Positions 24,098-50,947 of a stretch of 58,158 nt of DNA are shown here, piece after piece; within the stretch, counting starts at the first letter, position 1; every line of letters begins with the position of its first letter. The stretch spans positions 1 to 58,158 of the IMG/VR virus record IMGVR_UViG_3300011116_000399; one strand, 5' to 3'. The stretch comes from a virus. Taxonomy: Duplodnaviria > Caudoviricetes. The position numbers were made by a program, and so were the translations under genes. The notes under the pieces were generated by a model. That model ran no database searches. It was not told the origin of the DNA and saw only the letters and a program-made list of their open reading frames with translations.

Positions 24098-24640
24098 ATG
24101 GACAACGCATTAGAAGTTACACCAATCGATGATTTTGAAATCATCGAAGAGCCAGCCCGTGAACCATTCAAAGTTGATGATGATTCCAAGGCAGATTGGG
24201 CAATGCGAAAACTTGCCTCAATTCGACGCAAACAAGCAGAGAACAAAGACATCTTTGACCGAGAAGTTAAAAGGGTCATGGAATGGCTTGAGAAGGTCAA
24301 TACAGCCCTTGAGAGAGACGCTGAGTGGTTTGAGTCCAACCTCCGCCCATACGCCCTTCAGGAGCGCTCTAAAGACCGTAAAAGCATAGTTCTGCCCCAT
24401 GGCACAATCAAAACTGTCGCAGGTCGGGTCAAGTTCGATATTGAGGATGAATCTAAGTTAATCGAGTGGGCTGAGAAGAACGCCCCTGAATTAGTCCGAG
24501 TTAAAAAAGAAGTTGATAAAAAAGCCCTAGGTGCTTTGAATCAATCTGAAGATAAGGTAATATCAACCCAAGGTGAAATTATTCCAGCAGTAAAAGTTAT
24601 ACCTGCTGAGACTTCAGTTTCATTCGTAATAGCAGAGTAG
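24098..24640 (+). CDS. gam: Mu Gam-like host-nuclease inhibitor
   Basis: F.VDDD..ADWA.RK, KSI.LPHG, E.DK.AL. Confidence 0.8.
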   Translation: MDNALEVTPIDDFEIIEEPAREPFKVDDDSKADWAMRKLASIRRKQAENKDIFDREVKRVMEWLEKVNTALERDAEWFESNLRPYALQERSKDRKSIVLPHGTIKTVAGRVKFDIEDESKLIEWAEKNAPELVRVKKEVDKKALGALNQSEDKVISTQGEIIPAVKVIPAETSVSFVIAE

Positions 24641-24651
24641 AGAGAGGCAAC

Positions 24652-25320
24652 ATGGAAAACAAATTACCAATCGCTCAAGCATTGAGCGAAGTAATGAAGG
24701 CAGTTGGCGGTATCGCTAAGAAGGATAAAAACACATCTCAAGGATTTAATTTCCGTGGGATTGATTCAGTAGTTAATGCAGTCTCACCAGCCTTGCAAAA
24801 ATTTGGTGTGGTTGTAGTTCCATCAGTTGAGGAGTACGAATATCACACAGTTGAGATAGGACGGAATCGCACGGCTATGGGACATGTCAAAGTCAAAGTT
24901 AGTTATACATTCATCGGTGCAAACGGTGATGCAATCAAAGCAACAGTTGTTGGAGAAGCGATGGATTCAGGCGATAAGGCAACAGCCAAAGCCATGTCAG
25001 TTGCTTTCCGTACAGCCCTACTTCAATCATTGGCACTACCAACCGATGAAGTAGACCCTGATGCTCAGTCCTATGAACGCTCTTCCTCTGATGATGTTAT
25101 GGCGCCTTCAGCGGTGCTAACAAAAATTCATCAAGCGACTGACTTGGAATCCTTGGCATCAGTTGGTCAGTACATAACAGCCAACAAAGAAAAATACAAC
25201 GCCGAACTTTTAGAGCAGTTCCGTCTTAAGTTCCGTGAGCAACAGATAAAAATTAACCCACCAAAATTGGAAGAGGAATCCGATGAAGTCAAAGTCGAAG
25301 GAGTTACTGTTTCATCCTGA
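24652..25320 (+). CDS. erf: ERF-family ssDNA annealing protein
   Basis: K...N..Q.F.FRGID, GEAMD.GDKA..KA.S.A. Confidence 0.9.
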   Translation: MENKLPIAQALSEVMKAVGGIAKKDKNTSQGFNFRGIDSVVNAVSPALQKFGVVVVPSVEEYEYHTVEIGRNRTAMGHVKVKVSYTFIGANGDAIKATVVGEAMDSGDKATAKAMSVAFRTALLQSLALPTDEVDPDAQSYERSSSDDVMAPSAVLTKIHQATDLESLASVGQYITANKEKYNAELLEQFRLKFREQQIKINPPKLEEESDEVKVEGVTVSS

Positions 25321-25672
25321 ACTTCCATACGCAGGGACTTCGGGACATAGCGGAACAGATACATCTAGGGAGCGAGCGCTAAGTGCAGACAGGTCAGGTA
25401 AGACTGCTCTGCGTCAAGCACAAGCCTTAAACCTTTTATCTCAAAGAGAATTGGTTGGGCTTACTTGGAAAGAGTTATCTGAGATAACTGGACTTCACCA
25501 CGGAACCGCTTCGGGTGTATTGTCCGTCCTCCATAAATCAGGACGCATTGCCCGTCTCAAAGAGACTCGTAATGGTTGCAAGGTTTATGTAGATGTTTCT
25601 TGTATCGAAGGTCGATTAGTCGAAAGACAAGGGCGAAAGAAAAATTGCCCTCATTGTGGAGGAGATTTGTGA
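25283..25672 (+). CDS. Winged-HTH DNA-binding protein with C-terminal CxxC
   Basis: GLTWKEL....HHGTASG.LS.LH. Confidence 0.75.
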   Translation: MKSKSKELLFHPELPYAGTSGHSGTDTSRERALSADRSGKTALRQAQALNLLSQRELVGLTWKELSEITGLHHGTASGVLSVLHKSGRIARLKETRNGCKVYVDVSCIEGRLVERQGRKKNCPHCGGDL

Positions 25673-26385
25673 GCATTAGGTGGATTACAAAAGTTTGGGC
25701 AGATTCGCCTTATGACGGAACCAAACTTTTAATTCATCTTGCGCTCGCAGATATTTCTCACGATGACGGAAGATTCTTTGCCTCTCAGTCAAACCTTGCT
25801 TCCAAGGGTAGATGCTCGGTTGAGTATGTCCGAAAGGTCATCAACGAGATGATTGCCGACGGTCACCTAAAAATTATTACCAAGGGTAACTCCCGAGGTA
25901 ACGCAACTGTCTACCAGTTGTTATGGAAGAAACTCCCCAACTCAGTAGGGGACGAACAAAGTTTAGGAGGGGTAGAACTCCCCAACTCAGATACCCTCAA
26001 CTCCCCAACTTTGGAGGTTCAACTCCCCAACTCCACTCCGTACCATCCGTCCTATACATCCGTCCTATCTACAACGAAGAGTGACGAAACTGCTATCGCA
26101 GTTGTCGCACTCTCTGAAGCAGTAGCAAGAAAATGGTGGGAGAAGCAAAGAGTTAAACCATTGGGTAAAAGTGCTTGGCACTCTTTACTAGCAATCTGCC
26201 AAGCGGCAGAGAAGCGAGGCTACACAGCCGAACAAATTGAACAGGCGTTAGATTACATAGGCACAGTTCCATCTATGAGACAGATGGACTTAGTTCTAAG
26301 GGGAGTAGGTGTTAAAACAAAACATGAGCAATCAGCAATTAGAGCCATCGAATTATCAGAAAAACTCCGCAATGAGTCTCTCTGA
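25669..26385 (+). CDS. Replication initiator (N-terminal HTH, lambda O-like organisation)
   Basis: GTG 25669 with GGAGGAG SD; KL...LALAD....G.F.S...LA; internal iterons. Confidence 0.8.
   Translation: MSIRWITKVWADSPYDGTKLLIHLALADISHDDGRFFASQSNLASKGRCSVEYVRKVINEMIADGHLKIITKGNSRGNATVYQLLWKKLPNSVGDEQSLGGVELPNSDTLNSPTLEVQLPNSTPYHPSYTSVLSTTKSDETAIAVVALSEAVARKWWEKQRVKPLGKSAWHSLLAICQAAEKRGYTAEQIEQALDYIGTVPSMRQMDLVLRGVGVKTKHEQSAIRAIELSEKLRNESL
25931..26070 (+). repeat. Iterons / replication origin
   Basis: AACTCCCCAACT at 25931, 25976, 25999 and 26021, then CATCCGTCCTAT twice (26044, 26057). Confidence 0.85.
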
Positions 26386-26770
26386 CATAGCAGTCCTTGT
26401 GGGCTTCATCGGGATTTACGATTTACGAATTCAGGTAGATGAGTTAAAGGTTCGTGCATGGGCAGAATCTTTTGATTCAGATTTACCATTACAGGAAGCG
26501 AAGCGAATTGTTTCTTGGCATTATGCAAACTTTGACACGGCTATCCAACCATCACACATAAACAAAGAGTGGCGTCGTAGGATGTCTGATGAAAGAGAAA
26601 GAGAAAAAAGCCGTCTACTAAGTTTAGAGTTTGAGGAACGAGAAAAACAAAAAGCATCTCCTGAAGTTATTGCTAAATGGAAAAAAGAGTTTCGGGAGTA
26701 CATGGAAAGAAACAGGGTGACAGATGCTCCGTTGGAAACAGATAGCGGGACGATGGCACCTGACGCATGA
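26372..26770 (+). CDS. Putative helicase loader/replication accessory protein
   Basis: D.R......AW...PSHI pattern directly after the initiator. Confidence 0.65.
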   Translation: MSLSDIAVLVGFIGIYDLRIQVDELKVRAWAESFDSDLPLQEAKRIVSWHYANFDTAIQPSHINKEWRRRMSDEREREKSRLLSLEFEEREKQKASPEVIAKWKKEFREYMERNRVTDAPLETDSGTMAPDA

Positions 26771-26915
26771 AGATGTTTCGATTTGTCGATTGGTATTACA
26801 GATGGAGATTCAAACGACGGCAAAGGTATGCCCTGCTTGCTTGGACGCCCTCGCAGACGAGAGACTCCAATGGCAAACCCTAAACTTAAAGTTGATGATA
26901 AGACTCGATTCCTAG
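26724..26915 (+). CDS. Small Cys/His zinc-binding protein
   Basis: WH..H...C...CPAC; overlaps both neighbours. Confidence 0.5.
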   Translation: MLRWKQIAGRWHLTHEDVSICRLVLQMEIQTTAKVCPACLDALADERLQWQTLNLKLMIRLDS

Positions 26916-27238
26916 TTCTCGCTAGAGCCTTTTACAAATGTGAAAGATGTGGCAGAGATTTTTTAGGTTATCCAGTCTCAGTTCATCATCGGCGCCCAAG
27001 AATGATGGGCGGAAGTAAAAACCAAGAACTTCATAAATCAGCGAATCTTATTGTTTTATGCGGTACTGGAACTTCAGGTTGTCACGGTTGGGTTGAGTCT
27101 AATCGTGATAAGGCTAGGGAGTTAGGTTACCTAATTCAAAAGGTTGAGTCGGCTGAAGAGATACCTTTTCAGGATAACAACGGACTTTGGTGGTACTTGG
27201 ATAACTACGGCAGAAAGAGACAACTTGACATTGCTTAA
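26870..27238 (+). CDS. HNH endonuclease
   Basis: CERC, HHR.PR.MGG, NL..LC....GCH. Confidence 0.88.
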   Translation: MANPKLKVDDKTRFLVLARAFYKCERCGRDFLGYPVSVHHRRPRMMGGSKNQELHKSANLIVLCGTGTSGCHGWVESNRDKARELGYLIQKVESAEEIPFQDNNGLWWYLDNYGRKRQLDIA

Positions 27239-27259
27239 CCTGTACCTCACCTTTAAGTC

Positions 27260-27667
27260 ATGGATTGCTTATGTTATGCGGACGACGCTGAACAACTCAT
27301 CTATCGACTTGAGTTGGCTCAACGCCCATGGACGACAAACGCAGAGCGCTCAGGCAATCGATGGGAAAGAGCAAAACTTACAAAAGAGTGGCGCTCGGCT
27401 TTTCAACTACTGGCTAAATATGAGAAGATACCCCCTATGGCGTGGATTAGCGTCACCGTTGAACCTCACCAAAAAGGCGGGAGGCTTCAAGATGTAGGTG
27501 CATGTAATCCAGCAGTCAAAGCGGCTATCGACGGAATTGTTGATGCAGGAGTTCTTCCTGATGACTCTTCAAAATTTCTTCGTTCGTTAATTTTTCTGCC
27601 ACCACAGAACGACAGAAATTCTTTAGTGCTTTACATTCGAGGAGCGAGGAAAGAGAGGAAAGTATGA
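27260..27667 (+). CDS. rusA: RusA-like Holliday junction resolvase
   Basis: D....P..KA.IDG.VDAG..PDD; TTGACA promoter upstream. Confidence 0.8.
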   Translation: MDCLCYADDAEQLIYRLELAQRPWTTNAERSGNRWERAKLTKEWRSAFQLLAKYEKIPPMAWISVTVEPHQKGGRLQDVGACNPAVKAAIDGIVDAGVLPDDSSKFLRSLIFLPPQNDRNSLVLYIRGARKERKV

Positions 27668-27870
27668 ACTGGAGTTTAATATGGACAGTAGTTGGTTTAG
27701 CCATTGCCAGTTTTTTTATTTTGCCGATTTACATTGGTTACATAATTGCTTACAAAAAAGCAATGCTAAAAATTGAATTGGAGTTCGTTGCAACAGCGAA
27801 TCACATTCACAAAAAAGTAAAGTTTGATGATGCAGTCGAACGCCTGTTCGAAGAAGGAGAAGCGATATGA
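27664..27870 (+). CDS. Membrane protein
   Basis: N-terminal TM helix. Confidence 0.7.
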   Translation: MNWSLIWTVVGLAIASFFILPIYIGYIIAYKKAMLKIELEFVATANHIHKKVKFDDAVERLFEEGEAI

Positions 27871-28166
27871 GTACAGTAATGGAAGCAACAGAGTTAGACG
27901 GTAAAGGACTAGGTGAGGTCAAACTTCTAACAGATGCGATTCGTACCCACCAGTCGCAGATTCAAGACTTAGGTAAAAGACGCAAGCAGTTGATTCTTAG
28001 ATTACGAAAACAAAGAATCACTTACCGAGAGATTGCTGAAGCCATGGGTGTATCAGAGCAGTTAATTTACAAAATTATCCGCAACGATATTGAAAGAGTT
28101 CCTGAGTACGACAACGAAGGAAACCTAATTCGTAGACGAGGACGACCAGCGAAACAATTAGCCTAA
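27867..28166 (+). CDS. HTH transcription regulator with C-terminal AT-hook
   Basis: TYREIAEAMGVSEQ.IYKI; RRRGRP. Confidence 0.8.
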   Translation: MSTVMEATELDGKGLGEVKLLTDAIRTHQSQIQDLGKRRKQLILRLRKQRITYREIAEAMGVSEQLIYKIIRNDIERVPEYDNEGNLIRRRGRPAKQLA

Positions 28167-29137
28167 TGAAGTTCATAGAACTTTTTGCAGGTATTGGAGC
28201 CTTTCGACTTGGACTTGAAAGAACGGGTCATGAGTGCGTTTGGGCTAACGAATGGTTAGAGAGACCTAGGAGTATTTATGCAAGAAACTTCGGACACCAA
28301 CCTGACGGACGAGATATTAGAAATGTTTCCGCTGGAGACATTCCTGATGCCGACCTCCTCGTTGGCGGATTCCCTTGTGCGACTTTTTCAGTTGCAGGAA
28401 AGCGAACTGGATTCTCCTTGGATGACACCCGAGGGACACTCGCTTTTGAAATGTTTAGACTCGCTCACGAAAAATCAATACCGTATATCCTCTTTGAGAA
28501 TGTCAAAGGACTCCTCAATCACGACGGAGGAAGAACATTCGAAATCATCCTCGAAGTCTTGGATGGCTTGGGGTATGACTGTCAATGGGAATTGCTTAAC
28601 AGCGAAAATTTTGGAGTCCCACAACACAGAGAACGGGTATTCCTTATCGGACATCTTAGAGGAAACCCCCGACCAAAAGTATTTCCTATCGGACGAGCAA
28701 GTAACAGAAATCTTGAGACGGACAAAACAAAACAAAATGGAAGGTCGGGGTTTTTCTCCAACATTTCTCCAACACTAGATGCTCATTATTACAAAGGTGG
28801 GAACTCACGACCTTATGTATCAGTACAGGCAGTTGTGAATCCATCAATAAAAGTAAAGAATCAAAACGGGAGGTTAATAAAAAATCATAACGAATCAAGT
28901 TTCACTTTGACTGCAACCGACATACATGGAGTTGCGTTAGATGATGGAACAAAAATAAAATTAAGAAAATTAACCCCTTTGGAGTGCGAGCGCCTTCAAG
29001 GATTACCCGATGGATGGACGGAGTTCTACGAAGATGGAAGAAGAGTTTCAGATTCCGAAAGATACGAACGATGCGGACGGACAATCACTATCCCAGTCGT
29101 GGAAGCGATTGGTAGAAAACTTCATGACTTCTACTGA
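28166..29137 (+). CDS. C5 cytosine DNA methyltransferase homolog, predicted carboxymethyltransferase
   Basis: FAGIG, GFPC, ENV, Q.RER and LTP.ECERLQG motifs; motif X reads YERCGRT rather than the usual GN. Confidence 0.92.
   Translation: MKFIELFAGIGAFRLGLERTGHECVWANEWLERPRSIYARNFGHQPDGRDIRNVSAGDIPDADLLVGGFPCATFSVAGKRTGFSLDDTRGTLAFEMFRLAHEKSIPYILFENVKGLLNHDGGRTFEIILEVLDGLGYDCQWELLNSENFGVPQHRERVFLIGHLRGNPRPKVFPIGRASNRNLETDKTKQNGRSGFFSNISPTLDAHYYKGGNSRPYVSVQAVVNPSIKVKNQNGRLIKNHNESSFTLTATDIHGVALDDGTKIKLRKLTPLECERLQGLPDGWTEFYEDGRRVSDSERYERCGRTITIPVVEAIGRKLHDFY
28278..28778 (+). CDS. Nested alternate-frame MTase beta polypeptide (M.EcoHK31I-beta-like)
   Basis: Own AGGAG SD (28268-72) and ATG; SLSDILE...KYFLS....ILRR motif. 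Confidence 0.6.
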   Translation: MQETSDTNLTDEILEMFPLETFLMPTSSLADSLVRLFQLQESELDSPWMTPEGHSLLKCLDSLTKNQYRISSLRMSKDSSITTEEEHSKSSSKSWMAWGMTVNGNCLTAKILESHNTENGYSLSDILEETPDQKYFLSDEQVTEILRRTKQNKMEGRGFSPTFLQH

Positions 29138-29771
29138 GCCATTTTCGTTTGACACGATAAAAAACTTTGATGAGCATATCGCTCAATCAATCCCCAACTA
29201 TCAAACGCTGACTGAAGCAATCTGTGACCTGAGTACATACTTCATGACTGAAGATACCCAAGTGATTGACCTTGGTTGCTCAACTGGAAAACTTTTAGAA
29301 AGACTTCCTCACCGTGGTAGAAAAGTTGGCATCGATATAGCCGATAACCTTTTGCCTGAGTCCCATGATGAGACTTTATACATCCGCCGAGACTTAAGAG
29401 CCATAGAGAATTTTGGTAAGTCCAGTTTGATTCTTTCAATCTTCACCCTGCAATTCATTCCATACGAAGACCGACCAAACATCCTGAGTAACATCTATGA
29501 ATCTCTAGTTGAGGGTGGGGCTTTTATATGGGCTGAGAAAGTCCGAGAGGAAGACGGGGAACTAGAGCAAGCCATCAATGGCGCCTTTTTTGACTTCAAG
29601 CGTAAGGCTTTTACGCCCGAGCAGATATTAAACAAAGAGCGAGACTTGAGACCAATCATGAAAGTCAATTCATCTGTTAGGAATCAGATATTGGCTGAGA
29701 ACGCTGGCTTCACAGTTGGCACAATGTTTTGGAAGTTCTACAATTTCGAAGCGTGGATTTACATTAAATGA
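29124..29771 (+). CDS. cmoA: CmoA-like carboxy-SAM synthase / class I SAM-binding protein
   Basis: F.F....FD.HI..SIP.Y, DLGCSTG, FTLQF, GG....EK, DFKR, F.NF; overlaps the MTase stop. Confidence 0.8.
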   Translation: MTSTEPFSFDTIKNFDEHIAQSIPNYQTLTEAICDLSTYFMTEDTQVIDLGCSTGKLLERLPHRGRKVGIDIADNLLPESHDETLYIRRDLRAIENFGKSSLILSIFTLQFIPYEDRPNILSNIYESLVEGGAFIWAEKVREEDGELEQAINGAFFDFKRKAFTPEQILNKERDLRPIMKVNSSVRNQILAENAGFTVGTMFWKFYNFEAWIYIK

Positions 29772-30955
29772 AAGCGAAGATAAAAGTTGGTCAAGTTGCT
29801 TCAGTTGCTATCTCATCCCTTGAGGCGTACCCGACAAATCCTCGTCGTGGCGATATTGAAGCGATTGCTCAGTCACTCAAAGCCCATGGGCAGTACAGAC
29901 CGATTGTTGTTCAGATTGGTTCGAATTTTATCTTGGCAGGGAATCACACCTACAAAGCGGCAAAGAAACTTGGCTGGAAGAAAATCAAAATAACCTATGT
30001 CGATGTAGATGAAGAGAGCGCTCGCAAGATTGTCTTGGCTGATAATCGCATGACCGACCTTGCGACCTATAACGAACCTCTATTGAAATCTTTACTCTCA
30101 GCCCTACCTGAGTTAGAAGGAACAGGGTTCACTAAAGCCGAGGTTGAGATTTTAGATAGGTTAAGTAAGGGCGATGACAAAACTAGCGTTGGAGATTCTA
30201 AGTCTTTACCTAGCGACCCTGAAGTAAAGATTAGCGCTTGGAAGTTTACAGTTGAGATGGATGCCTATAAAGCGTGGAAAGAACAACTCTACATAGATGC
30301 ACCGACAAAACAGAAAGCCATCCGAGCCATCAAAGACAGATTAGGACTACCTGAACCCAAGCCAGTTAAACCTGAACCTGAGGGTGAGCGTTCTGAGATT
30401 GAGGTAAGCGATGTTGAGACAGTTGGCATCAACGAGATTAAAGTCCATCCGCTAAATCCTAGAGAGGGCGATATAGGCTCAATCATTCAGTCCCTTGAGG
30501 TAATGGGTCAGTATCGACCTATCGTGGTCAATAAAACTACTAAACACATCCTTTCAGGAAATCACACATATCAAGCGGCGGTTCAGTTAGGATGGGAAAA
30601 GATTGCAGTTCATTGGGTCGATGTCGATGATGTTGAGGAGATAAAAATTCTTATTGTCGATAACCGAACCTCTGACCTAGCAACTTATGACCCACAGGAA
30701 CTAAATAAACTTCTGACGACAACTGGCTTGCGGGGAACAGGCTTTAGTCCCGAAGAGGTTGCCGAAATCTTGGGTGGGGGAAAATCCAAGCCTGGGCATA
30801 TTCCTGTGGGTCGTACAACAATTCGGGTTGGCGAACACACTATGAGAGTTCATACCGAAGACCTAAATGAATGGGCTAACACCATAAATGGCTGGAAAGA
30901 TATTGCCGAGTTATTATTTATTCCTATTGAGGCATGTACAACCGAGGTAGAATAA
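29768..30955 (+). CDS. Tandem ParB/Srx-domain protein
   Basis: Two copies of P.NPR.GD...GQYRPIVV...IL.GNHTY.AA...DNR..DLATY. Confidence 0.85.
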   Translation: MKAKIKVGQVASVAISSLEAYPTNPRRGDIEAIAQSLKAHGQYRPIVVQIGSNFILAGNHTYKAAKKLGWKKIKITYVDVDEESARKIVLADNRMTDLATYNEPLLKSLLSALPELEGTGFTKAEVEILDRLSKGDDKTSVGDSKSLPSDPEVKISAWKFTVEMDAYKAWKEQLYIDAPTKQKAIRAIKDRLGLPEPKPVKPEPEGERSEIEVSDVETVGINEIKVHPLNPREGDIGSIIQSLEVMGQYRPIVVNKTTKHILSGNHTYQAAVQLGWEKIAVHWVDVDDVEEIKILIVDNRTSDLATYDPQELNKLLTTTGLRGTGFSPEEVAEILGGGKSKPGHIPVGRTTIRVGEHTMRVHTEDLNEWANTINGWKDIAELLFIPIEACTTEVE

Positions 30956-30959
30956 ACCC

Positions 30960-31091
30960 ATGAAGATTACCGTAAAGATTGAACGAGAGAAGAAAGAGTT
31001 CATAGATACCTCCTGCTTCCATTGCGGTAAGTCCTTGAAGATTCATGAGCGAAACATCCGAGCAGTTAATTTCTGCGATGGTTGTAAATGA
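30960..31091 (+). CDS. Small zinc-finger protein (43 aa, leaderless)
   Basis: TAGAAT-6 nt-ATG; CFHC...CDGC. Confidence 0.65.
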   Translation: MKITVKIEREKKEFIDTSCFHCGKSLKIHERNIRAVNFCDGCK

Positions 31092-31099
31092 GGAGACAC

Positions 31100-31228
31100 A
31101 TGGAAAAGAAAATAGGACGATACTGGTTCGCTTGGGGACGCACTAGCGGATTCGCTTTAGGGTTCTGCATTGATAAATACCATTGGACTATTGACTTGGG
31201 ATTTTGGTACATAGGGCAGGAGTTCTAG
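31100..31228 (+). CDS. Small aromatic-rich protein (42 aa)
   Basis: GAGGAG SD; stop overlaps the TerS GTG. Confidence 0.6.
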   Translation: MEKKIGRYWFAWGRTSGFALGFCIDKYHWTIDLGFWYIGQEF

Positions 31229-31746
31229 TGGCAACGGCAGTAGTGAAAAAGCAACCCGCTAAACCAAAGGGGCGACCTCAAGGGACGACGGTTCTTCTTG
31301 ATGATACAAAGCGAGAAGAGTTAATCAATTTGATTGTGCTTGGTCTGCCTGTAAACAAAGCGGTAGCCATGGTGAACATTGCTGAGTCCACTTTCTATAA
31401 CTGGATGAGCCGTGGAATGGTCGAGCGGGATAGGCTGGCAACGATTCCTGATGCTAAACCTAAACCCGAGGAGAAAATATATTTGGATTTTTTGGAGTCA
31501 CTCACACGGGCGAGAGCGGAGGCAATCGCTAAAAAAGTTGCAGTCGTATCAAGTGCGGCAAGCCAAGGAGACTGGAAAGCCTCGGCTTGGTGGCTTGAGC
31601 GTCAAGTACCTGAAGACTTTGGCAAGGTAGATAAACAGGAAGTGATGTCTCATTCTGTGTCAGAGGTCAAAGTTACAATCACCATGGGAGAACTCCAAGA
31701 GAAAATAGCCAAGGTTTTAGAATCCCGTAAAACGAAAAGCGCATGA
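31228..31746 (+). CDS. terS: Terminase small subunit
   Basis: GRP, HTH (AESTFYNW), WKA.AW.LER..P..FG. Confidence 0.8.
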   Translation: MATAVVKKQPAKPKGRPQGTTVLLDDTKREELINLIVLGLPVNKAVAMVNIAESTFYNWMSRGMVERDRLATIPDAKPKPEEKIYLDFLESLTRARAEAIAKKVAVVSSAASQGDWKASAWWLERQVPEDFGKVDKQEVMSHSVSEVKVTITMGELQEKIAKVLESRKTKSA

Positions 31747-31749
31747 GAA

Positions 31750-31914
31750 ATGACCCCATGCCGTCATGTTTATGAATATGTCAATGCTTCGATATGTCCC
31801 GATTGCGGAAAAGATACTCATGAGCCAAACTGGGAGCAGATAAACAAAGCCAATAAAAAATGGCGCAAGGATAATCCTGATGCGTGGCGACAAGTTGGAT
31901 GGTGGAGTATCTAG
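31750..31914 (+). CDS. Small zinc-binding protein between terS and terL (54 aa)
   Basis: C.H...CPDC; stop overlaps the TerL GTG. Confidence 0.6.
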   Translation: MTPCRHVYEYVNASICPDCGKDTHEPNWEQINKANKKWRKDNPDAWRQVGWWSI

Positions 31915-33518
31915 TGACCGAAAGACTTCTTGATAAATTCCTTGAAAGCGATTCAGTTAAACAAGCCGAGTTACTGGCGATGCTTACCCCTGAAGAGCGC
32001 CATGCTCTTATGGTCATTCTTGATGCTGAGTTAGATAACCCTTGGGCTAGATGGCAAAACGACCCTGTTGGATTTGTTGAACAAGGGTTAGGGGAAACTC
32101 TTTGGAGTAAACAAAAAGAGATTTTGAATTCTTTAATGGTTAATAAAAGAACGGTAGTACCTGCTTGCCATGCGCCTGGGAAATCTCACTTAGCGGCTAG
32201 AGCAGTTGCTTGGTGGTTATCTTGTCATCCAGCAGGAACAGCGGTTGCAATTACAACAGCGACTACACACCGACAGGTTCGAAACATTATGTGGCCGCAT
32301 ATTCGTAGAGTTCATGCAAAGAATAATCTGCCTGGGGAAGCCGACACGGTTCAATGGAAAATAAATGGCACCGTGGTTGGATACGGATTTAGCCCAAGCG
32401 CTCATGATGAAACAGCGGTTCAGGGTATTCACGCACCTAACTTGCTCGTAGTAGTTGATGAGGCTGGAGGTTTATCAGACACAATCGGTGGCGCCCTTGA
32501 GTCTTTGATGACAGGTGGCAACACAAAACTATTAGTTCTAGGTAACCCGCCAACAGATGCCGAGCAAACTTGGTTTGAAAGAATCTGCTCAAGTCCGCTT
32601 TACAACATAATTCCAATCAGCGCTTATGACACTCCAAACTTTACGGGTGAGGCTACGGGCAGATGTCGCTCATGCCCTGACTACATAGAAGCCCACGAAG
32701 TTAAAACCCACCTTGTAGACCAAACTTGGGTTAATGATGTTATCTCTGAATTCGGAGAAGATTCTCCATTCGTTGAAGCCCGTGTTATGGCGCAGTTTCC
32801 TAAATCAAGTACAGGCAAAGTTATCCCGTTTGCTTGGGCTGAGTTAGCCACAGAGAATGAAACACCGCTTGAATCTAAGGTAGTAAAACTGGGAGTCGAT
32901 ATTGCATCCGACGGCGGAGATGAATTTGTTATTGCAAGGCTAGACGGTTACGCAGTCAGCATCGTCCATCGCTCTTCAGGTAAACAAAATGCTAACGCAG
33001 TTGATGTGGCTGGAGTTGTCATGCGAGAGATTGAAGCCTGTATCAAGATTCATCAAGAAAGAGAAATACGAGACCGAGTTAGAGTCAAGGTAGATACCAT
33101 CGGATTAGGTTGGGGAGTTGTATCCATGTTGGATAGATGGGTAAAGGAAAGACAATTACCCGCTGACATCATCGGAGTCAATGTTGCCGAGAAGCCTAAA
33201 GACCAAGCCAAGTTTAAGAATCAAAGGGCTGAGATGTGGTGGAACGCTAGACAGATGATGCAACCTAAAGAGGGTAAACAAGATGTCAGATTAAATGTAG
33301 ATAGATTCGTTCTCTCGCAGTTGGCAGGACCAACCTATACATCAGACGCATCAGGTCGAATTGTTATTGAATCAAAAGTTGATATGAAGAAACGGGGTGT
33401 CGCTTCCCCTGACCGTGCTGAAGCAATACTCTTAGCGCTCTATGAAAACAAATCAGTTCTGCCTACCTTTGCACCTATCTCGATTGGACAATCAAACCCA
33501 TGGAATATGAATCTGTAA
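31914..33518 (+). CDS. terL: Terminase large subunit
   Basis: Walker A-like ACHAPGKS, Walker B VVVDEA, GNP, GVDIA, SPD.AEA. Confidence 0.93.
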   Translation: MTERLLDKFLESDSVKQAELLAMLTPEERHALMVILDAELDNPWARWQNDPVGFVEQGLGETLWSKQKEILNSLMVNKRTVVPACHAPGKSHLAARAVAWWLSCHPAGTAVAITTATTHRQVRNIMWPHIRRVHAKNNLPGEADTVQWKINGTVVGYGFSPSAHDETAVQGIHAPNLLVVVDEAGGLSDTIGGALESLMTGGNTKLLVLGNPPTDAEQTWFERICSSPLYNIIPISAYDTPNFTGEATGRCRSCPDYIEAHEVKTHLVDQTWVNDVISEFGEDSPFVEARVMAQFPKSSTGKVIPFAWAELATENETPLESKVVKLGVDIASDGGDEFVIARLDGYAVSIVHRSSGKQNANAVDVAGVVMREIEACIKIHQEREIRDRVRVKVDTIGLGWGVVSMLDRWVKERQLPADIIGVNVAEKPKDQAKFKNQRAEMWWNARQMMQPKEGKQDVRLNVDRFVLSQLAGPTYTSDASGRIVIESKVDMKKRGVASPDRAEAILLALYENKSVLPTFAPISIGQSNPWNMNL

Positions 33519-35174: not shown

Positions 35175-35274
35175 GGTTATTCACCTTTTCAACAATGATT
35201 TCCTTGATTTTGTCCAAGTCTTCCTTGGATACCTCAACGCCTAAAACCGCGACTTTATCGAGCCAGTTACTCAT
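35161..35274 (-). CDS. Hypothetical protein (37 aa)
   Basis: ATGA-coupled; MSNWLDKVAVLG... Confidence 0.5.
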   Translation of the reverse strand: MSNWLDKVAVLGVEVSKEDLDKIKEIIVEKVNNQPQL

Positions 35275-37829: not shown

Positions 37830-38753
37830 CTAGGGTTTTACAACCTCGGTAGGCACAGCCATGAGTCCGAGCGCAACCGTCGCCCATAGGTCAGGGGTTT
37901 CCGTATCGGGCTGGTATCCACCCGCTCCACCTAGAAGGATTGGATGCTCGGGGAACTGCTCTCTAATCAGGCGCATAGCCTTGAAATAGCCATCCTTGGT
38001 GTATTGCAAGGATGAGAGTGGGTCATTGGCTAGACCATCGGCTCCACACGCTACGAAAATCATCGTAGGCTGGAACTCGTTGCAAGCCTCGAGGAATCCC
38101 TCAGTAGCAGATAACAATTCTGCATCGCCTGACTTTGATGCAAGCGGGAAGTTATAGGCAAGATGTTTCCAATCGCTAATCAATCCCGTGCCTGGAAAAA
38201 TCCCATACTCATGAACTGAGTAAGTTAGAACATTTTTGTTCTTCTTTAACAGCATTTCAGTACCGTCACCATGGTGAGCATCGCAATCAAAGATAGCGAC
38301 CCTATGGTCATAATCTTGAGTTGCTCTAGTTGCGGCAATAGCAAAATCATTGAACACACAAAAACCGCTTGAGTAGTCACGCATTGCGTGATGCTTTGCA
38401 CCAGCAAAGTGAACAGCCAATTTAGTTTTGTAATCAATCAAAGCATCGAGAGCAGTCAAAGTACCGCCAGCAAACAACTTGGCTAAATCACCTAGGTCGT
38501 GGCGTTGTCCCATCCATTCACTTGATTCACCTCGGACAGTTACATCGAAAACATACTCCATGTCATGAACTAGATGCAGGTCATCAGTAGATGGCATCTC
38601 AGGTTCAATCTCCCAAACATTTAATCTACGGTCTTGCGCTCGCAACATAAGTTGATTACGAGCATGGAGAAACCTCCGCCCCTGAGTTGGGTGCGTCTTG
38701 TCAAAAACCCAATTCGCATACTCAGGCGAATGAACTAATACTGCATGTTCCAT
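37830..38753 (-). CDS. Zn-dependent deacetylase of the histone deacetylase/AcuC family
   Basis: HP....R, GAKHHA, SGFC.FND, D.DAHHGDG, GADG...DPL, GGY. Confidence 0.92.
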   Translation of the reverse strand: MEHAVLVHSPEYANWVFDKTHPTQGRRFLHARNQLMLRAQDRRLNVWEIEPEMPSTDDLHLVHDMEYVFDVTVRGESSEWMGQRHDLGDLAKLFAGGTLTALDALIDYKTKLAVHFAGAKHHAMRDYSSGFCVFNDFAIAATRATQDYDHRVAIFDCDAHHGDGTEMLLKKNKNVLTYSVHEYGIFPGTGLISDWKHLAYNFPLASKSGDAELLSATEGFLEACNEFQPTMIFVACGADGLANDPLSSLQYTKDGYFKAMRLIREQFPEHPILLGGAGGYQPDTETPDLWATVALGLMAVPTEVVKP

Positions 38754-38854
38754 AGTTTCTCCTCTCATAATATAAACCCCAGTTTACCTTATTTATTGAT
38801 TATTGACAAAACTTAATAAACCCATAAAATTCGTTTTGAGGTTAATCCCCTCGA

Positions 38855-42195: not shown

Positions 42196-42310
42196 TCAAA
42201 ATAGCGTAGCCAACAATTCCTTTTGCAACACCATCAAGAACAATCCAAGCAACAAACATTCCTAAGAGTGTCCAAAGTTGTCCTATGATGTCATTAAAAA
42301 ATGCTTTCAA
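42143..42310 (-). CDS. Small two-TM membrane protein (55 aa)
   Basis: TTG overlapping the upstream TGA; [17 protein letters not shown]. Confidence 0.7.
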
Positions 42311-44508
42311 GGTTTTCTCCTATATCCGACGCTTCCAATGGAAGCAGTCACTATTGCGTTGCTGGCGATATTGCCAACAATCGTTGCGGCAACAATCGTC
42401 TTAGTTGCCTCATCTCTTTCTTCTTCTGACATATCTGCTCCGAGATTTCCAAGAGCAAAAATAAGTTGAGCAGGACTCTCAAATATCGCTTGCAGAATTT
42501 CTGCTGGAGATTCAAGAAGTTGAAGAGCATCAGCAACAACGGCAGTAATTATGACAGCATTGCCATTTTCATCTTCTCTGACCTCAACAGGTGTAGCAGG
42601 TGGAAGGTCGGCTAAAGTAATTCCTGCTTCAGCAATAGCCTCAACAGTTACCGCTTCTCCTGCAAAAGATTCAATCAAAGCCTCGGCTACAAGTTCTTTT
42701 TCTGATTCTGTAAAGGTTCCATCCTCACTTAATTGTTCGGAAAGATTATTGACTTCATCTTGAGTAATTTCTCCATCCGCCGATAGTGCGTCGATTATCT
42801 CTTCGGCATCAGCGGGTGTAATATCGCCACCATCTAAAATGTCGGAGAGTATTTCTTCAACAATCTCGGAGGTGTCTAATGATTCAGAAGGTTGTTCTGT
42901 CGGCTCTAATTCTTCTTGGGGCGTGGCTTCTTCTTCATTTGATTCAGAAGTAGGTTCATCTAATGGTGGTTGTTCAGGTGTTTGATTTGTCGGGTCAGAT
43001 TCCTCTTGGTTTTCGGAAGGTTCATCCTGAGGTTCTTCGGAAGGCTGAGGAGTTGGCTCAGGCTCGGGGGTCGGTTGAGGTTCAGGGGTCGGTTCGGGTG
43101 TCACTTCAGGACTTGGACTTGGCTGAGGTTCAGGGGACGGAGTGGGAGTGGGTTGAGGCTGTGGGTCGGGAGTCGGCGTTACCGAAGGGGTATCGATTGG
43201 ACTCGGAGCAGGGCTTGGTACAGGATTTGGTTCAGGTGACTGAGATGGAATTGGGGTAGGCGATGGCGAAGGTGTGGGTTCAGTTGTGGACGGCGAAGGT
43301 TGCGGGGTCGGTTCAGGTTGAGGAGTCGGAGTTACGACAGGTTCAGGGCTTGGAGTCGGCGAAGGCGTTGGTTCCGATGTTGGTTGAGATTCGGGAGAAG
43401 GAGTGGGAGATGTTGCCGACGGTGTTGGTGAAGGAGTCACCGTTGGTTCAGGTGTCGGACTTGGAGAAGGCTGAGGAGTTGCTTGAGGTGTTGGAGCCGT
43501 GGCGGGATTAGCGTCGCCATATTCAAGAATTACTTCTAAGCGTTTAACAATTCCACCACAAGGGTCACCAAAGATTTGATTGATTGCTTGAATGACAGCA
43601 TTGTTTTTTCCAAGAAAAATTTCGGAAACTTTTGCTACTGAGTTAGCCGCATGGCATTGAGCATTGATTACATAATTTTCAGGAAGTCCATAACTAGCAA
43701 AAATTACATTTGTAAAAATCTTTCCGATTGGTGCAATTAAATTTAAGGAGCCACCTTCACCTACCGTACCATTTACCTGATTAGAAGGAGTAGTCGATGG
43801 AGTGGTTGTTGCTGTTGGGCTTTCTGATGGGATGGGTTGTGGGCTTGATTCAGGGGTCGGCTCAGGAGAAGAGGTTGGCTCAGGAGTTAAAGTGGGCGAA
43901 GGCGAAGGCTCGGGTGTTGGAGTTGGACTTGGCTCGCTGGTCGGAGAAGAACTCGAAGTGGGCGAAGGAGATGGTTGAACAGTTGAAGTCTCGGACGGAG
44001 ATGGAGAAGTCGTTGCAGTCGGAGTATCAGATGTCGGAGTCGGCGAAGGCTCAGGCGTTATCGAAGGGGTGGGCGTGGGTGTTGGGGCAGGAGAACTCAC
44101 CGAGACAGTAAAGATTGGTCCGTACCATCCAGCCCAAAATCCATTATCGATACCCGAAACATTGATAACAGTTTGACCCGAGGAAACAACACTTACAGAA
44201 GTTGCTTCGATTGAATTACCGCTAAAACTTTGACCGTTGATTGAAACGCTCCAACTATCAGCAATAGGAGTACAACTACCAATACAGTTGGCGATGGTGT
44301 TATTGATTGAGACGGTGACAGTTGAACCGTCGGCGACATTGATTCGATTATTAGCGCTACCGCCTCGATAGTCGAATTGGATTGAGTCGCCCGAGATATT
44401 GCCATTTACCACCTGTTGCCAAGTACCGTCGGCGCTTGCCGAGTCGGTAGGCAAAATCGTCCACCAAAAGGCGAGGCTACAAATTAGGAAAATACGCCAA
44501 ATACGCAG
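42307..44508 (-). CDS. Secreted/membrane-anchored Pro-Thr-rich protein with a SUEL-type lectin domain (probable CTG start)
   Basis: AGGAG-7 nt-CTG gives signal peptide [26 protein letters not shown]; FASYG.P...CHA.NS...FGDPC....K.L.V; C-terminal hydrophobic segment plus RRK. Confidence 0.85.
42960..44100 (-). repeat. Low-complexity (PT/PS/PE)n coding repeats flanking the lectin domain
   Basis: Degenerate PTPSPEP repeats; locally GC-rich. Confidence 0.85.
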
Positions 44509-47963: not shown

Positions 47964-48305
47964 ATGGGTTTACCTGAATTTGTTAATGATGCTCCATGTC
48001 GCTCTGCCGACCCATGGCTCTTTGACCAACATCAAATTGATTTAGCGCAACCCGCTCTTTCTTATTGTTCAAGATGTAAATTTTGGAAAGAGTGTGACTC
48101 TCTAGTTCAGCCTCAGACTAATCACTATGACGGAATTGTTGCTGGAAAAGTGTGGCGCAACGGAAGAATTTTGGCTAAGTTAGACGCCTATTCCCCGAAT
48201 CGTTTAGTAGTTGGAGAGGAATCTATTGAAGAAAATAATTATGCCGTGGAAATTCGAGGGAGCGAGTTGTTGGGGAATCGAGACGAATTACTTCTTCCCG
48301 AATGA
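47964..48305 (+). CDS. whiB: WhiB-family regulator (divergent)
   Basis: C...DP.LF...C..C.....C...GIVAG. Confidence 0.75.
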   Translation: MGLPEFVNDAPCRSADPWLFDQHQIDLAQPALSYCSRCKFWKECDSLVQPQTNHYDGIVAGKVWRNGRILAKLDAYSPNRLVVGEESIEENNYAVEIRGSELLGNRDELLLPE

Positions 48306-48507
48306 TGAAGGAGGAACAAGCACAGAGTATGGAATAGCAAAGAGAATTTGTAAGGGATGCTATTGGCAAGAGGAATGTCTTACCTATGCGTTACATTACA
48401 AAGTGTTAGGGATTTGGGGTGGAACAACACTAAATCAGCGAGACATAATGAGAAAAAAACTAAACATAATCGCCAAACCAATAACCAATGAAAGGCACAC
48501 AGCATGA
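48241..48507 (+). CDS. whiB: WhiB-family regulator
   Basis: C......FFP...AK.IC..C.....CL.YAL.....GIWGG. Confidence 0.92.
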   Translation: MPWKFEGASCWGIETNYFFPNDEGGTSTEYGIAKRICKGCYWQEECLTYALHYKVLGIWGGTTLNQRDIMRKKLNIIAKPITNERHTA

Positions 48508-49507: not shown

Positions 49508-50947
49508 ATGGCAGACAAACCAACCCCCGATTTAACTGAACTCGGAGCCACGGGTTTACGCCGTTCAGGTGGAACGGTCTATGAAGAATTCTTAGTAAAT
49601 CTACGAGGTATTCGTGGCGCAAAAGTTTATCGAGAGATGGCGGACAATGACCCAACCATCGGCTCAATGTTATTCGCAATCGAGAAAGTTATTACCCGTC
49701 TTGAATGGCGTGTAGACCCATACTCAGATAATTCTGAAGATGGAGAGATTACTAAAGAGGATAAAGAAGTAGCGGCGTTCGTAGAATCTTGCTTAAACGA
49801 TATGTCAGATTCTTGGGATTCAACACTATCCCAAATGTTGTCGATGTTAATTTTTGGTTATTCATATCATGAGATTGTTTACAAAGTTCGAGGCGGAGAT
49901 GTAAACGACCCACAGAAAAATTCTAAGTTTAATGATGGTCGTATTGGCTGGCGCAAAATGCCAATCCGTGCCCAAGAAACTTTATTTAGATGGATGATGG
50001 ATGAAGATGGTGGCATCCAAGGAATGATTCAAGTAGACCCATCAACGGGTGGAACTCACGCTATCCCGATTGAGAAATCTTTGTTATTCCGTACATCTTC
50101 ACAAAAGAATAACCCTGAAGGTCGTTCTATTCTTCGTAATGCTTACCGCCCTTGGTATTTCAAGCGCCGTATTGAAGAGATTGAAGCAATCGGTATTGAG
50201 CGTGACTTAGCAGGTTTGCCAGTTGCTTATGTACCACCTGAGTTCTTATCTTCAACAGCAACCGCAGAGCAAGCGGCAGTTCTAGCATCAATCCAAAATA
50301 TCGTTACCTCTATCAAGCGTAATGAGCAAGAAGGAATTGTTATGCCTTCTATGTACGATGATGCTGGACATAAAGTATTTGATTTAGTTTTATTATCATC
50401 AGGCGGAAGCCGTCAGTTCGACACAGACAAGATTATTCAAAGATATGACCAAAGAATTTCTATGTCTATCCTTTCAGACTTTATTCTTCTTGGCTCTGAC
50501 CGAGTTGGCTCATACGCTCTTGGAACCTCCAAGATGGATTTGTGGTCAATGGCAGTTGATTCAATCGCTAAAAATATCGCTGAGGTAATGAACCAATATG
50601 CGATTCCAAGATTACTAAAACTTAACGGAATGAATCCATCCCGTGCCCCTTATCTAACTTATGGTGAAGTAAGCCATGTTGATTTGAACGAAATCTCAGC
50701 CTTTGTTTCTAACTTGGCTCAGGTTGGCGTACTTGTTCCTGACCCTAAGTTGGAAGAGTATCTACGAGACTTGGCTGGATTACCACCTGCTGAACACGAT
50801 GGACAAAATTTTGGTATGCCTCCAATGCCTGAAGGTATGGGAATTCCTCCTGCACCTGAAGAAGCCGATGGCGCTGGTGAAGAAGAATTACCTCCACCTC
50901 CACCAACACCTGAAGGATTGAATCCACCCGCACCTGAAGTTGGTTAA
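49508..50947 (+). CDS. Portal protein (DUF935-like)
   Basis: Y.EM...D..I, NPEG.S.LR.AY.PW.FK, GSYALG; precedes MuF. Confidence 0.88.
   Translation: MADKPTPDLTELGATGLRRSGGTVYEEFLVNLRGIRGAKVYREMADNDPTIGSMLFAIEKVITRLEWRVDPYSDNSEDGEITKEDKEVAAFVESCLNDMSDSWDSTLSQMLSMLIFGYSYHEIVYKVRGGDVNDPQKNSKFNDGRIGWRKMPIRAQETLFRWMMDEDGGIQGMIQVDPSTGGTHAIPIEKSLLFRTSSQKNNPEGRSILRNAYRPWYFKRRIEEIEAIGIERDLAGLPVAYVPPEFLSSTATAEQAAVLASIQNIVTSIKRNEQEGIVMPSMYDDAGHKVFDLVLLSSGGSRQFDTDKIIQRYDQRISMSILSDFILLGSDRVGSYALGTSKMDLWSMAVDSIAKNIAEVMNQYAIPRLLKLNGMNPSRAPYLTYGEVSHVDLNEISAFVSNLAQVGVLVPDPKLEEYLRDLAGLPPAEHDGQNFGMPPMPEGMGIPPAPEEADGAGEEELPPPPPTPEGLNPPAPEVG

Follow-up and report, generated by a model that had tools for sequence, protein, structure and literature searches.

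Carboxymethyltransferase systems and the new locus

The closest described systems for the locus reported here are one natural phage pathway and a few engineered C5 cytosine DNA methyltransferases (MTases). The system of Synechococcus phage S-B43 comprises CmoA, CmoX and the glycine ligase CmoY, and its CmoX (SpCmoX) was solved with carboxy-S-adenosylmethionine (Cx-SAM) as structure 8YF3 (Yang et al. 2025, Nat Commun 17:281, PMC12783734). SpCmoA makes Cx-SAM from S-adenosylmethionine (SAM) and prephenate about 10 times faster than CmoA of Escherichia coli. Wild-type SpCmoX takes only Cx-SAM, not SAM, and its crystal structure shows the natural basic residue R350 in contact with the carboxymethyl group of Cx-SAM (PMC12783734). 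A total of 5,615 CmoX candidates from IMG/VR and other sources was defined by 'SPPC' (S95 P96 P97 C98) and R350; CmoA was present on 4,257 of the candidate contigs, ligases of several kinds on 2,251 and ParBc on 1,660 (PMC12783734). Replacement of the motif X Asn by a basic residue, as in M.MpeI N374K and M.MedI N377K, enables transfer of the carboxymethyl group from carboxy-SAM to cytosine C5 (Chem Sci 2025, PMC12015181). M.HhaI is a GCGC C5-methyltransferase. The two conserved-motif residues that crowd its transferable group are Gln82 and Asn304, and the pocket was enlarged there for bigger groups; Q82A lowered methylation about 16-fold and raised extended-group transfer (Lukinavicius et al. 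2012, PMC3526304). Here, a related locus is described from the virus record IMGVR_UViG_3300011116_000399. The whole stretch of 58,158 bases, one record with about 43% G+C and an estimated completeness of 96%, is called the window. A C5-MTase homolog that carries Arg instead of the motif X Asn (28166–29137, + strand) overlaps a CmoA homolog (29124–29771, +), and the two very probably make 5-carboxymethylcytosine (5cxmC) in phage DNA through an operon of the CmoA/CmoX type.

A preliminary description of this DNA had proposed that the phage carboxymethylates its cytosines and had mentioned earlier reports of phage CmoA/MTase clusters. The carboxymethylation reading is, as far as can be judged from sequence, right but not new. 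The CmoA/CmoX system was already published in December 2025 (PMC12783734), and the window carries a further, divergent case. No other paper describing a natural CmoX was found in the literature searched.

The likeness to S-B43 extends to several features. In both phages, CmoA adjoins a C5-MTase homolog with Arg for the motif X Asn. Both transferases have the ER.GR string, and in both the catalytic Cys is followed by a small residue (Ser in SpCmoX, Ala in the window). The ParBc neighbour reported for many CmoX contigs has a counterpart in the ParB_N protein encoded next to cmoA in the window. The systems differ in gene order, which is MTase-cmoA with overlapping frames in the window but CmoA-CmoY-CmoX in S-B43. 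No CmoY ligase was found in the window. The target of SpCmoX is GC; for the window allele, GCGC is a weak candidate. The engineered M.HhaI variant Q82A/Y254S/N304A provides a second comparison, as the window enzyme has natural substitutions at the two conserved-motif positions engineered there, Gln82 and Asn304. However, residue 304 is Ala in the variant and a charged Arg in the window, and the variant works with a synthetic analog, whereas the natural cofactor here would be Cx-SAM. In M.MpeI N374K and M.MedI N377K, the motif X Asn is likewise exchanged for a basic residue, but for Lys instead of Arg; these CG-specific enzymes are laboratory mutants that still methylate with SAM (PMC12015181), and they have no partnered CmoA.

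In similarity scores, SpCmoX was no closer to the window clade than to its Asn-type relatives (median 75 versus 70.5 bits). Trees were calculated with Asn-type rows of 290–450 aa sampled at random (42 or 30), plus a few chosen ones, and the truncated or misaligned rows P0124, P0154, P0189, P0196, P0236 and P0198 were omitted. A quick tree from which the trait columns had been dropped placed the window clade within the Asn types at a support of 99 and SpCmoX with fused Asn types at 96. In an approximately unbiased (AU) test, a tree holding all Arg rows together was likelier than the free quick tree, by 13.2 log-likelihood units (p-AU 0.805), and a careful tree showed the two Arg groups side by side across a weak branch (13/75). 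The claim of an independent origin of the Arg in the window clade was dropped after these two results, which do not reject a common origin with SpCmoX. On sequence grounds, the window enzyme was provisionally filed as a divergent GFPC-A/ER.GR member of the CmoX family, not as a convergent one.

Pocket residues of the methyltransferase and their link to cmoA

By family tests, 28166–29137 encodes a complete C5 DNA methyltransferase of 323 aa, with profile scores above cutoff and six motifs in order. PF00145 covered the whole protein (E 9.3e-72; 242.6 bits, cutoff 22) and TIGR00675 (dcm) reached 259.6 bits against a cutoff of 100.65. Motif I was FAGIGAF (aa 7–13), motif IV GFPC with the catalytic Cys71 (aa 68–71), motif VI ENV (aa 111–113), motif VIII QHRER (aa 153–157), motif IX RKLTPLECERLQG (aa 267–279) and motif X ERCGRTIT (aa 301–308). 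Translation and profiles thus agreed with the initial account of intact motifs I, IV, VI and VIII. The closest solved structure by sequence was M.HhaI (E 7e-48, N-terminal 162 aa aligned; phmmer against PDB). The SpCmoX structure 8YF3 gave a much weaker match in the PDB search (E 2.7e-11), and DNMT2 chains were also matched (E 6.6e-11). No relative exceeded 40% identity in 185,579 species genomes (5 loci) or 42.3% in isolate phages (418 records, E ≤ 1e-30). At the DNA level, matches were confined to the conserved core of the MTase, in phages of Streptococcus and others, with 6–10% query coverage.

Arg305, encoded by CGG at 29078–29080 (+), occupies the place of the motif X Asn, as had been noticed at the outset. 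It fell on Asn304 of M.HhaI in the phmmer alignment, with 304 counted from the printed chain numbering, and on Arg350 of SpCmoX in a MAFFT alignment, within the common ER.GR string (ERCGR in the window, ERVGR in S-B43, ERIGR in S-CRM01). Among the nearest representatives at 50% identity, 146 of 150 were alignable, four truncated rows being left out. The motif X position was Asn in 136 of them, Arg in the seven closest, and Met, Leu and Asp in one each. Arg was also present in all 120 close homologs listed (66–99% identity). Arg305 is therefore no chance variant.

A second change was found in motif IV (28367–28381, +), where GFPC with Cys71 is followed by Ala72 in the place of Gln82 of M.HhaI. 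The residue after the catalytic Cys was Ala in all seven complete Arg-type rows of the window clade, Ser in two cyanophage CmoX and Gln in 132 Asn-type rows. Ala72 co-varies with Arg305 and is a second pocket change. The available text of PMC12783734 contained no mention of the Ser/Ala change. By analogy with the enlarged M.HhaI pocket and with SpCmoX, Ala72 would make room for the carboxymethyl group and disfavour SAM, while Arg305 would bind the carboxylate. The general premise of the preliminary description, that a basic residue at the motif X Asn turns a C5 MTase into a carboxymethyltransferase, holds for M.MpeI N374K and M.MedI N377K (PMC12015181) and for R350 of SpCmoX (PMC12783734). One relative outside the window, P0141, has Met at motif X and Gln after the catalytic Cys. 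It was nested in the Arg-type clade as sister to P0127 (support 97/87) and is possibly a reversion to methyl transfer.

The association between the motif X Arg and cmoA is the strongest evidence of the analysis and was observed directly, as were the gene content and the residue identities. In the window, the CmoA-like gene starts with ATG at 29124, ahead of the MTase stop (TGA at 29135–29137), which confirms the described overlap and sets it at 14 nt. Of the 80 related viral loci, 79 had cmoA directly after the MTase, its start lying a few bases ahead of the MTase stop codon; the contig of the 80th ends 15 nt past the MTase. A control set of 164 further loci was obtained with three other queries, a divergent Arg-type, an Asn-type and a Met-type protein. 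It included cmoA just downstream of the MTase in 15 of 15 Arg-type loci and within the flanks of none of the 139 Asn-type loci. The remainder consisted of one Thr-type locus and nine loci cut before motif X. Two control loci were repeats: L200, one of the 15, is a contig of the first set, and L213 equals L104. Both sets together showed cmoA in 94 of 94 evaluable Arg-type and 0 of 139 Asn-type loci, and this co-occurrence without exception supports the carboxymethylation reading. A signature of two residues, a small one after the catalytic Cys and the motif X Arg, correctly told cmoA-linked enzymes apart from ordinary methyltransferases in all of these 233 evaluable loci. The CmoAs of the control set were only 23–49% identical to that of the window or to SpCmoA, and the genes around the MTase-cmoA pair varied between ten Arg-type loci of other phage lineages, as judged from open reading frame (ORF) lists that were not profile-searched. 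The link between Arg and cmoA thus spans a deep divergence and is not the inheritance of a single lineage.

The gene at 29124–29771 (+) encodes a putative CmoA-like carboxy-SAM synthase of 215 aa, and its assignment as a CmoA homolog in the preliminary description was upheld. The best NCBIfam match, by far the best-scoring family, was CmoA TIGR00740 (E 6.2e-28); phrog_4752 was matched with E 1e-55. The best solved relatives were the CmoA/YecO structures 1im8, 4iwn and 4gek (E 2e-21 to 1e-16). The proven phage enzyme SpCmoA was closest, with 37% identity over 230 aligned positions (E 7e-45), and the best matches in isolate phages were cyanophage CmoAs (71 records). The cofactor-binding residues of E. 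coli CmoA, Y39, D62, G64, S66, D89, D117, F137 and E164 (Byrne et al., PMC3663124), have kept equivalents in Y26, D49, G51, S53, D71, D90, F111 and E138. Residues N90 and N132 of E. coli CmoA are kept neither in the window product nor in SpCmoA.

Proposed pathway and alternatives

The HTH-adjacent MTase (HTH, helix-turn-helix), the CmoA homolog and a ParB_N protein probably form a three-gene phage DNA-modification operon of the CmoA/CmoX kind. The chemical steps and the product are proposed from the known enzymes. CmoA would first turn SAM and host prephenate into carboxy-SAM. The C5 MTase homolog would then flip the target cytosine for attack of Cys71 on C6, and the carboxymethyl group of carboxy-SAM would be moved to C5, yielding 5cxmC in the phage DNA. 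The cofactor preference would arise from the carboxylate contact of Arg305 and from the space opened by Ala72, with methyl transfer disfavoured. The base would stay 5cxmC, no amide ligase having been found, and would shield the target sites of the enzyme against host nucleases, the target being set by a swappable cassette.

Several findings weigh against this pathway. The MTase is about 30% identical to SpCmoX, and over the N-terminal 186 aa only; its motif IV reads GFPC and lies outside the literal 'SPPC' criterion. The TIGR00740 score of the CmoA homolog is 98.1 bits, below the equivalog cutoff of 193.3. Arg199 of E. coli CmoA, which forms a salt bridge with the carboxylate (PMC3663124), aligns with Glu172 (KERDLR against the K-R-S-M-L-E stretch). 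Many window ORFs lacked a family assignment, leaving room for an unrecognised follow-up enzyme. At the Arg199 position, the proven synthase SpCmoA has the same Glu. The carboxy-SAM synthase call therefore depends on kinship with SpCmoA and not on Arg199. Beside Glu172, Arg173 and Arg176 were largely conserved, position 173 being Arg or Lys in 55 and position 176 Arg in 58 of 69 distinct homologs. The CmoA-like genes beside Arg-type MTases in loci L111, L173, L183, L196 and L074 were without Arg at the positions of window residues 173 and 176; among these five, the Arg199-equivalent position was basic only in L173 (Lys).

The alternative that survives best, though it is unlikely, is that 5cxmC is only an intermediate and that an unrecognised phage or host enzyme, unrelated to CmoY, processes the carboxylate, for instance into an amide, comparable to the glycine ligation in S-B43. 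S-B43 virion DNA contained the glycine amide only and no 5cxmC, and the ligases on 2251 published CmoX contigs are of several kinds (PMC12783734). In the window, many ORFs had no Pfam match, and a histone-deacetylase-family amidohydrolase (PF00850, E 9.4e-58, no PHROG match) is encoded at 37830–38768 (−), in a mostly minus-strand block between terminase and portal. Against this stand the results of the ligase search. By tblastn, neither the window nor 81 other loci contained a relative of SpCmoY (best E 0.58). Asn_synthase (PF00733) was not matched in the window record, 96% complete as stated, though it matched all 14 control genomes, and no ligase family was found among 36 window ORFs scanned against Pfam. 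The neighbours of the MTase-cmoA pair also varied in the ten Arg-type loci of other lineages, by the same ORF lists, and in S-CRM01 cmoA and cmoX are adjacent with no ligase between them. As these searches revealed no amide ligase, the window phage probably keeps 5cxmC as its final base.

Far less probable is that the MTase still makes 5-methylcytosine from SAM while CmoA serves the host tRNA modification cmo5U (5-carboxymethoxyuridine) or drains SAM against SAM-dependent defences. The catalytic motifs for methyl transfer are all intact, tRNA modification is the native role of CmoA (PMC3663124), and SAM depletion by CmoA was raised as an open question by the S-B43 authors (PMC12783734). However, such an activity leaves unexplained why cmoA was paired with Arg-/Ala72-type MTases only and with none of 139 Asn-type enzymes. 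No CmoB-like partner was found among the 36 ORFs of the Pfam scan, which was non-exhaustive. In addition, SpCmoX does not use SAM (PMC12783734), and methylation by M.HhaI is lowered by Q82A (PMC3526304). It can practically be dismissed that the pair modifies something else than phage DNA, for instance host DNA or an RNA, in order to take over or regulate the cell. Some C5-MTase-fold enzymes do methylate tRNA, with DNMT2 chains among the PDB matches, and the flanking HTH and ParB-like DNA-binding proteins could indicate site-directed action. However, DNMT2 (E 6.6e-11) is a far more distant match to the enzyme than are the bacterial and phage DNA MTases (M.HhaI, E 7e-48), the enzyme has a typical variable target-recognition domain (TRD) with a TL module, and the proven homologous system modifies phage genomic DNA (PMC12783734).

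Recognition cassette, restriction sites and genomic setting

The swappable target-recognition core of the MTase lies at 28704–28963 (+) and was delimited by comparison of loci and assemblies. It includes one 'PTL' module (SPTLDAHYYKGG, aa 201–212). Between the window and locus L007, whose two-module MTase allele has 356 aa, identity was 95–100% in the flanking genes and likewise in the catalytic MTase parts, but only 55–65% over MTase residues of about 175–263, with a length difference of 33 aa. A contig of run X16 matched 27845–28703 and 28964–29533, and 359 other letters replaced the 260 between them. Runs X1, X4 and X8 showed loose ends with at least three different continuations from 28693–28703, and loose ends also at 28964; run X4 also included a contig with the window's own allele. 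Depth dips over the cassette were given no weight. The cassette is swapped among near-identical phages, a polymorphism seen directly in the public assemblies, which suggests that phages of a single type differ in target specificity within their populations.

Two 'PT[LI]' modules were found in 69 of 77 relatives, 65 of type A+B and four of type B+C. By the same patterns, one module was counted in eight of the 77 rows, including the window, and four of these eight represented a short 107-aa form. The TRD had no match to any solved chain in PDB at E up to 10. Isolate phages yielded weak tblastn matches, only to uncharacterised MTases of Firmicutes phages, with 31–40% identity in the listed rows. 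The matches included 20 Bacillus phage records, and no specificity was readable from them. The multispecific C5-MTases of Bacillus phages (SPR, phi3T and relatives) carry tandem short recognition modules, each with a TL motif, in their variable region, and are methyltransferases with Asn. Like them, relatives of the window enzyme carry more than one module, namely two; the window allele differs in having a single one.

The genome is under strong restriction pressure. GATC, AGCT, CCGG and ACGT were absent against expectations of 228, 226, 108 and 100, respectively. GGCC occurred once (at 32293; 145 expected) and CGCG once (at 35248; 117 expected). The observed value for GCWGC was 0.5 against 39, and CASTG did not occur against 29 expected. 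CCAGA/TCTGG was nearly absent from the genome, and more than 12 six-base palindromes had zero copies, for example TTTAAA, AATATT, CAATTG, GATATC and ATTAAT. GCGC was near expectation with 136 observed and 152 expected copies, as were TCGA, TGCA, CATG and CTAG. This extreme restriction-site avoidance strengthens the proposal that the cytosine modification serves anti-restriction, a protective role that is itself deduced.

GCGC was near expectation in almost all loci with the TRD module of the window. Speaking against GCGC as the target, it was also near expectation in two of four loci without the module and depleted in one with it. GCGC is thus a weak lead for the target of the window allele and not a result. 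CGCG loss tracked the phage lineage. An explanation of CGCG retention by a second TRD module was rejected, as L006–L008 have two modules and no CGCG.

Somewhat tentatively, the window enzyme can be seen as part of a distinct CmoX subfamily (GFPC-Ala, ER.GR, HhaI-like core, MTase-then-cmoA) that is missed by 'SPPC + R350'. Exchange of cassettes between near-identical phages within single samples would then make it a natural library of sequence-specific carboxymethyltransferases in freshwater phages, leaving bare 5cxmC. The window allele may cover GCGC, the only all-G/C four-base palindrome not purged.

The MTase and cmoA belong to a run of four translationally coupled plus-strand genes, HTH, C5 MTase, CmoA homolog and ParB_N protein, with overlaps of 1, 14 and 4 nt at the junctions. 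The first gene (27867–28166, +) encodes a small HTH protein of 99 aa (PF13384 HTH_23, E 1.1e-08; phrog_6223 'transcriptional repressor', E 9e-07), and its TAA stop shares 1 nt with the MTase ATG. In 70 of the 80 related loci, an HTH homolog immediately preceded the MTase. The last gene (29768–30955, +), entered from cmoA through a 4-nt ATGA overlap, encodes a protein of 395 aa with two ParB_N (ParB/Srx) domains. It matched PF02195 in two stretches (E 7.9e-15, 55.1 bits against a cutoff of 26.3) and phrog_8071 over its full length (E 6.7e-164), and each ParB_N domain has a GNHT motif, at aa 58 and aa 264. Of the 80 related loci, 60 showed a homolog of this protein; most of the remaining 20 stop at or just past cmoA. 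The frequency of promoter and terminator consensus sites around the operon was no higher than in shuffles.

A recombination/replication set is located just 5' of the operon (24098–27667, +). It comprises a Mu Gam-like gene (24098–24640, +), ERF (24652–25320, +), an HTH_36 protein (+), an HNH endonuclease (26783–27238, +) and a RusA-like resolvase (27260–27667, +), the last two being the 5' neighbours of the operon. On the 3' side follow the small and large terminase subunit genes, the latter at 31884–33518. The ParB-like gene is separated from the small terminase gene by a spacer (30956–31260) that varied between assemblies. Contigs of runs X1, X4 and X8 omitted 141 or 296 bases within it, one with 28 other letters instead. 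About 16 kb separate the large terminase gene from the portal gene (49508–50947), and the minus-strand block between them includes a 715-aa protein with a SUEL lectin domain (42307–44454). A search for tRNA genes found none.

A WhiB gene was found at 48256–48444 (+; E 3.7e-13, above the Pfam cutoff), adjoined by a second, weaker WhiB-like gene at 47988–48146 (E 1.1e-4; region 47964–48507, +). Among 14 control genomes, the WhiB family matched only Corynebacterium. The large terminase subunit (TerL) was 51–53% identical to terminases of Arthrobacter phages. The WhiB-like genes and the Arthrobacter-phage-like TerL thus suggest that the host is probably an actinobacterium and not a cyanobacterium, in support of the preliminary designation as an actinophage. 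The window was detected in 20 runs from 11 studies, 18 of them with at least half of its sampled words. All 24 runs listed are available as contigs. The runs are labelled as viral, freshwater, riverine and aquaculture metagenomes, and the detailed assembly comparison with the window covered four of them.

Natural 5cxmC has so far been shown in one cyanophage. With this locus, the known range of the system would come to include many freshwater phages, a large group that is uncultivated and probably actinobacterial, and the locus would represent a minimal two-gene version of the pathway with no ligase. The varying cassettes may be of practical interest, as tools for sequence-specific DNA carboxymethylation now rely on CG-specific mutants. 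With near-total avoidance of many restriction sites and a predicted chemical modification in one phage, the window offers a good case for studying how these two strategies are divided.

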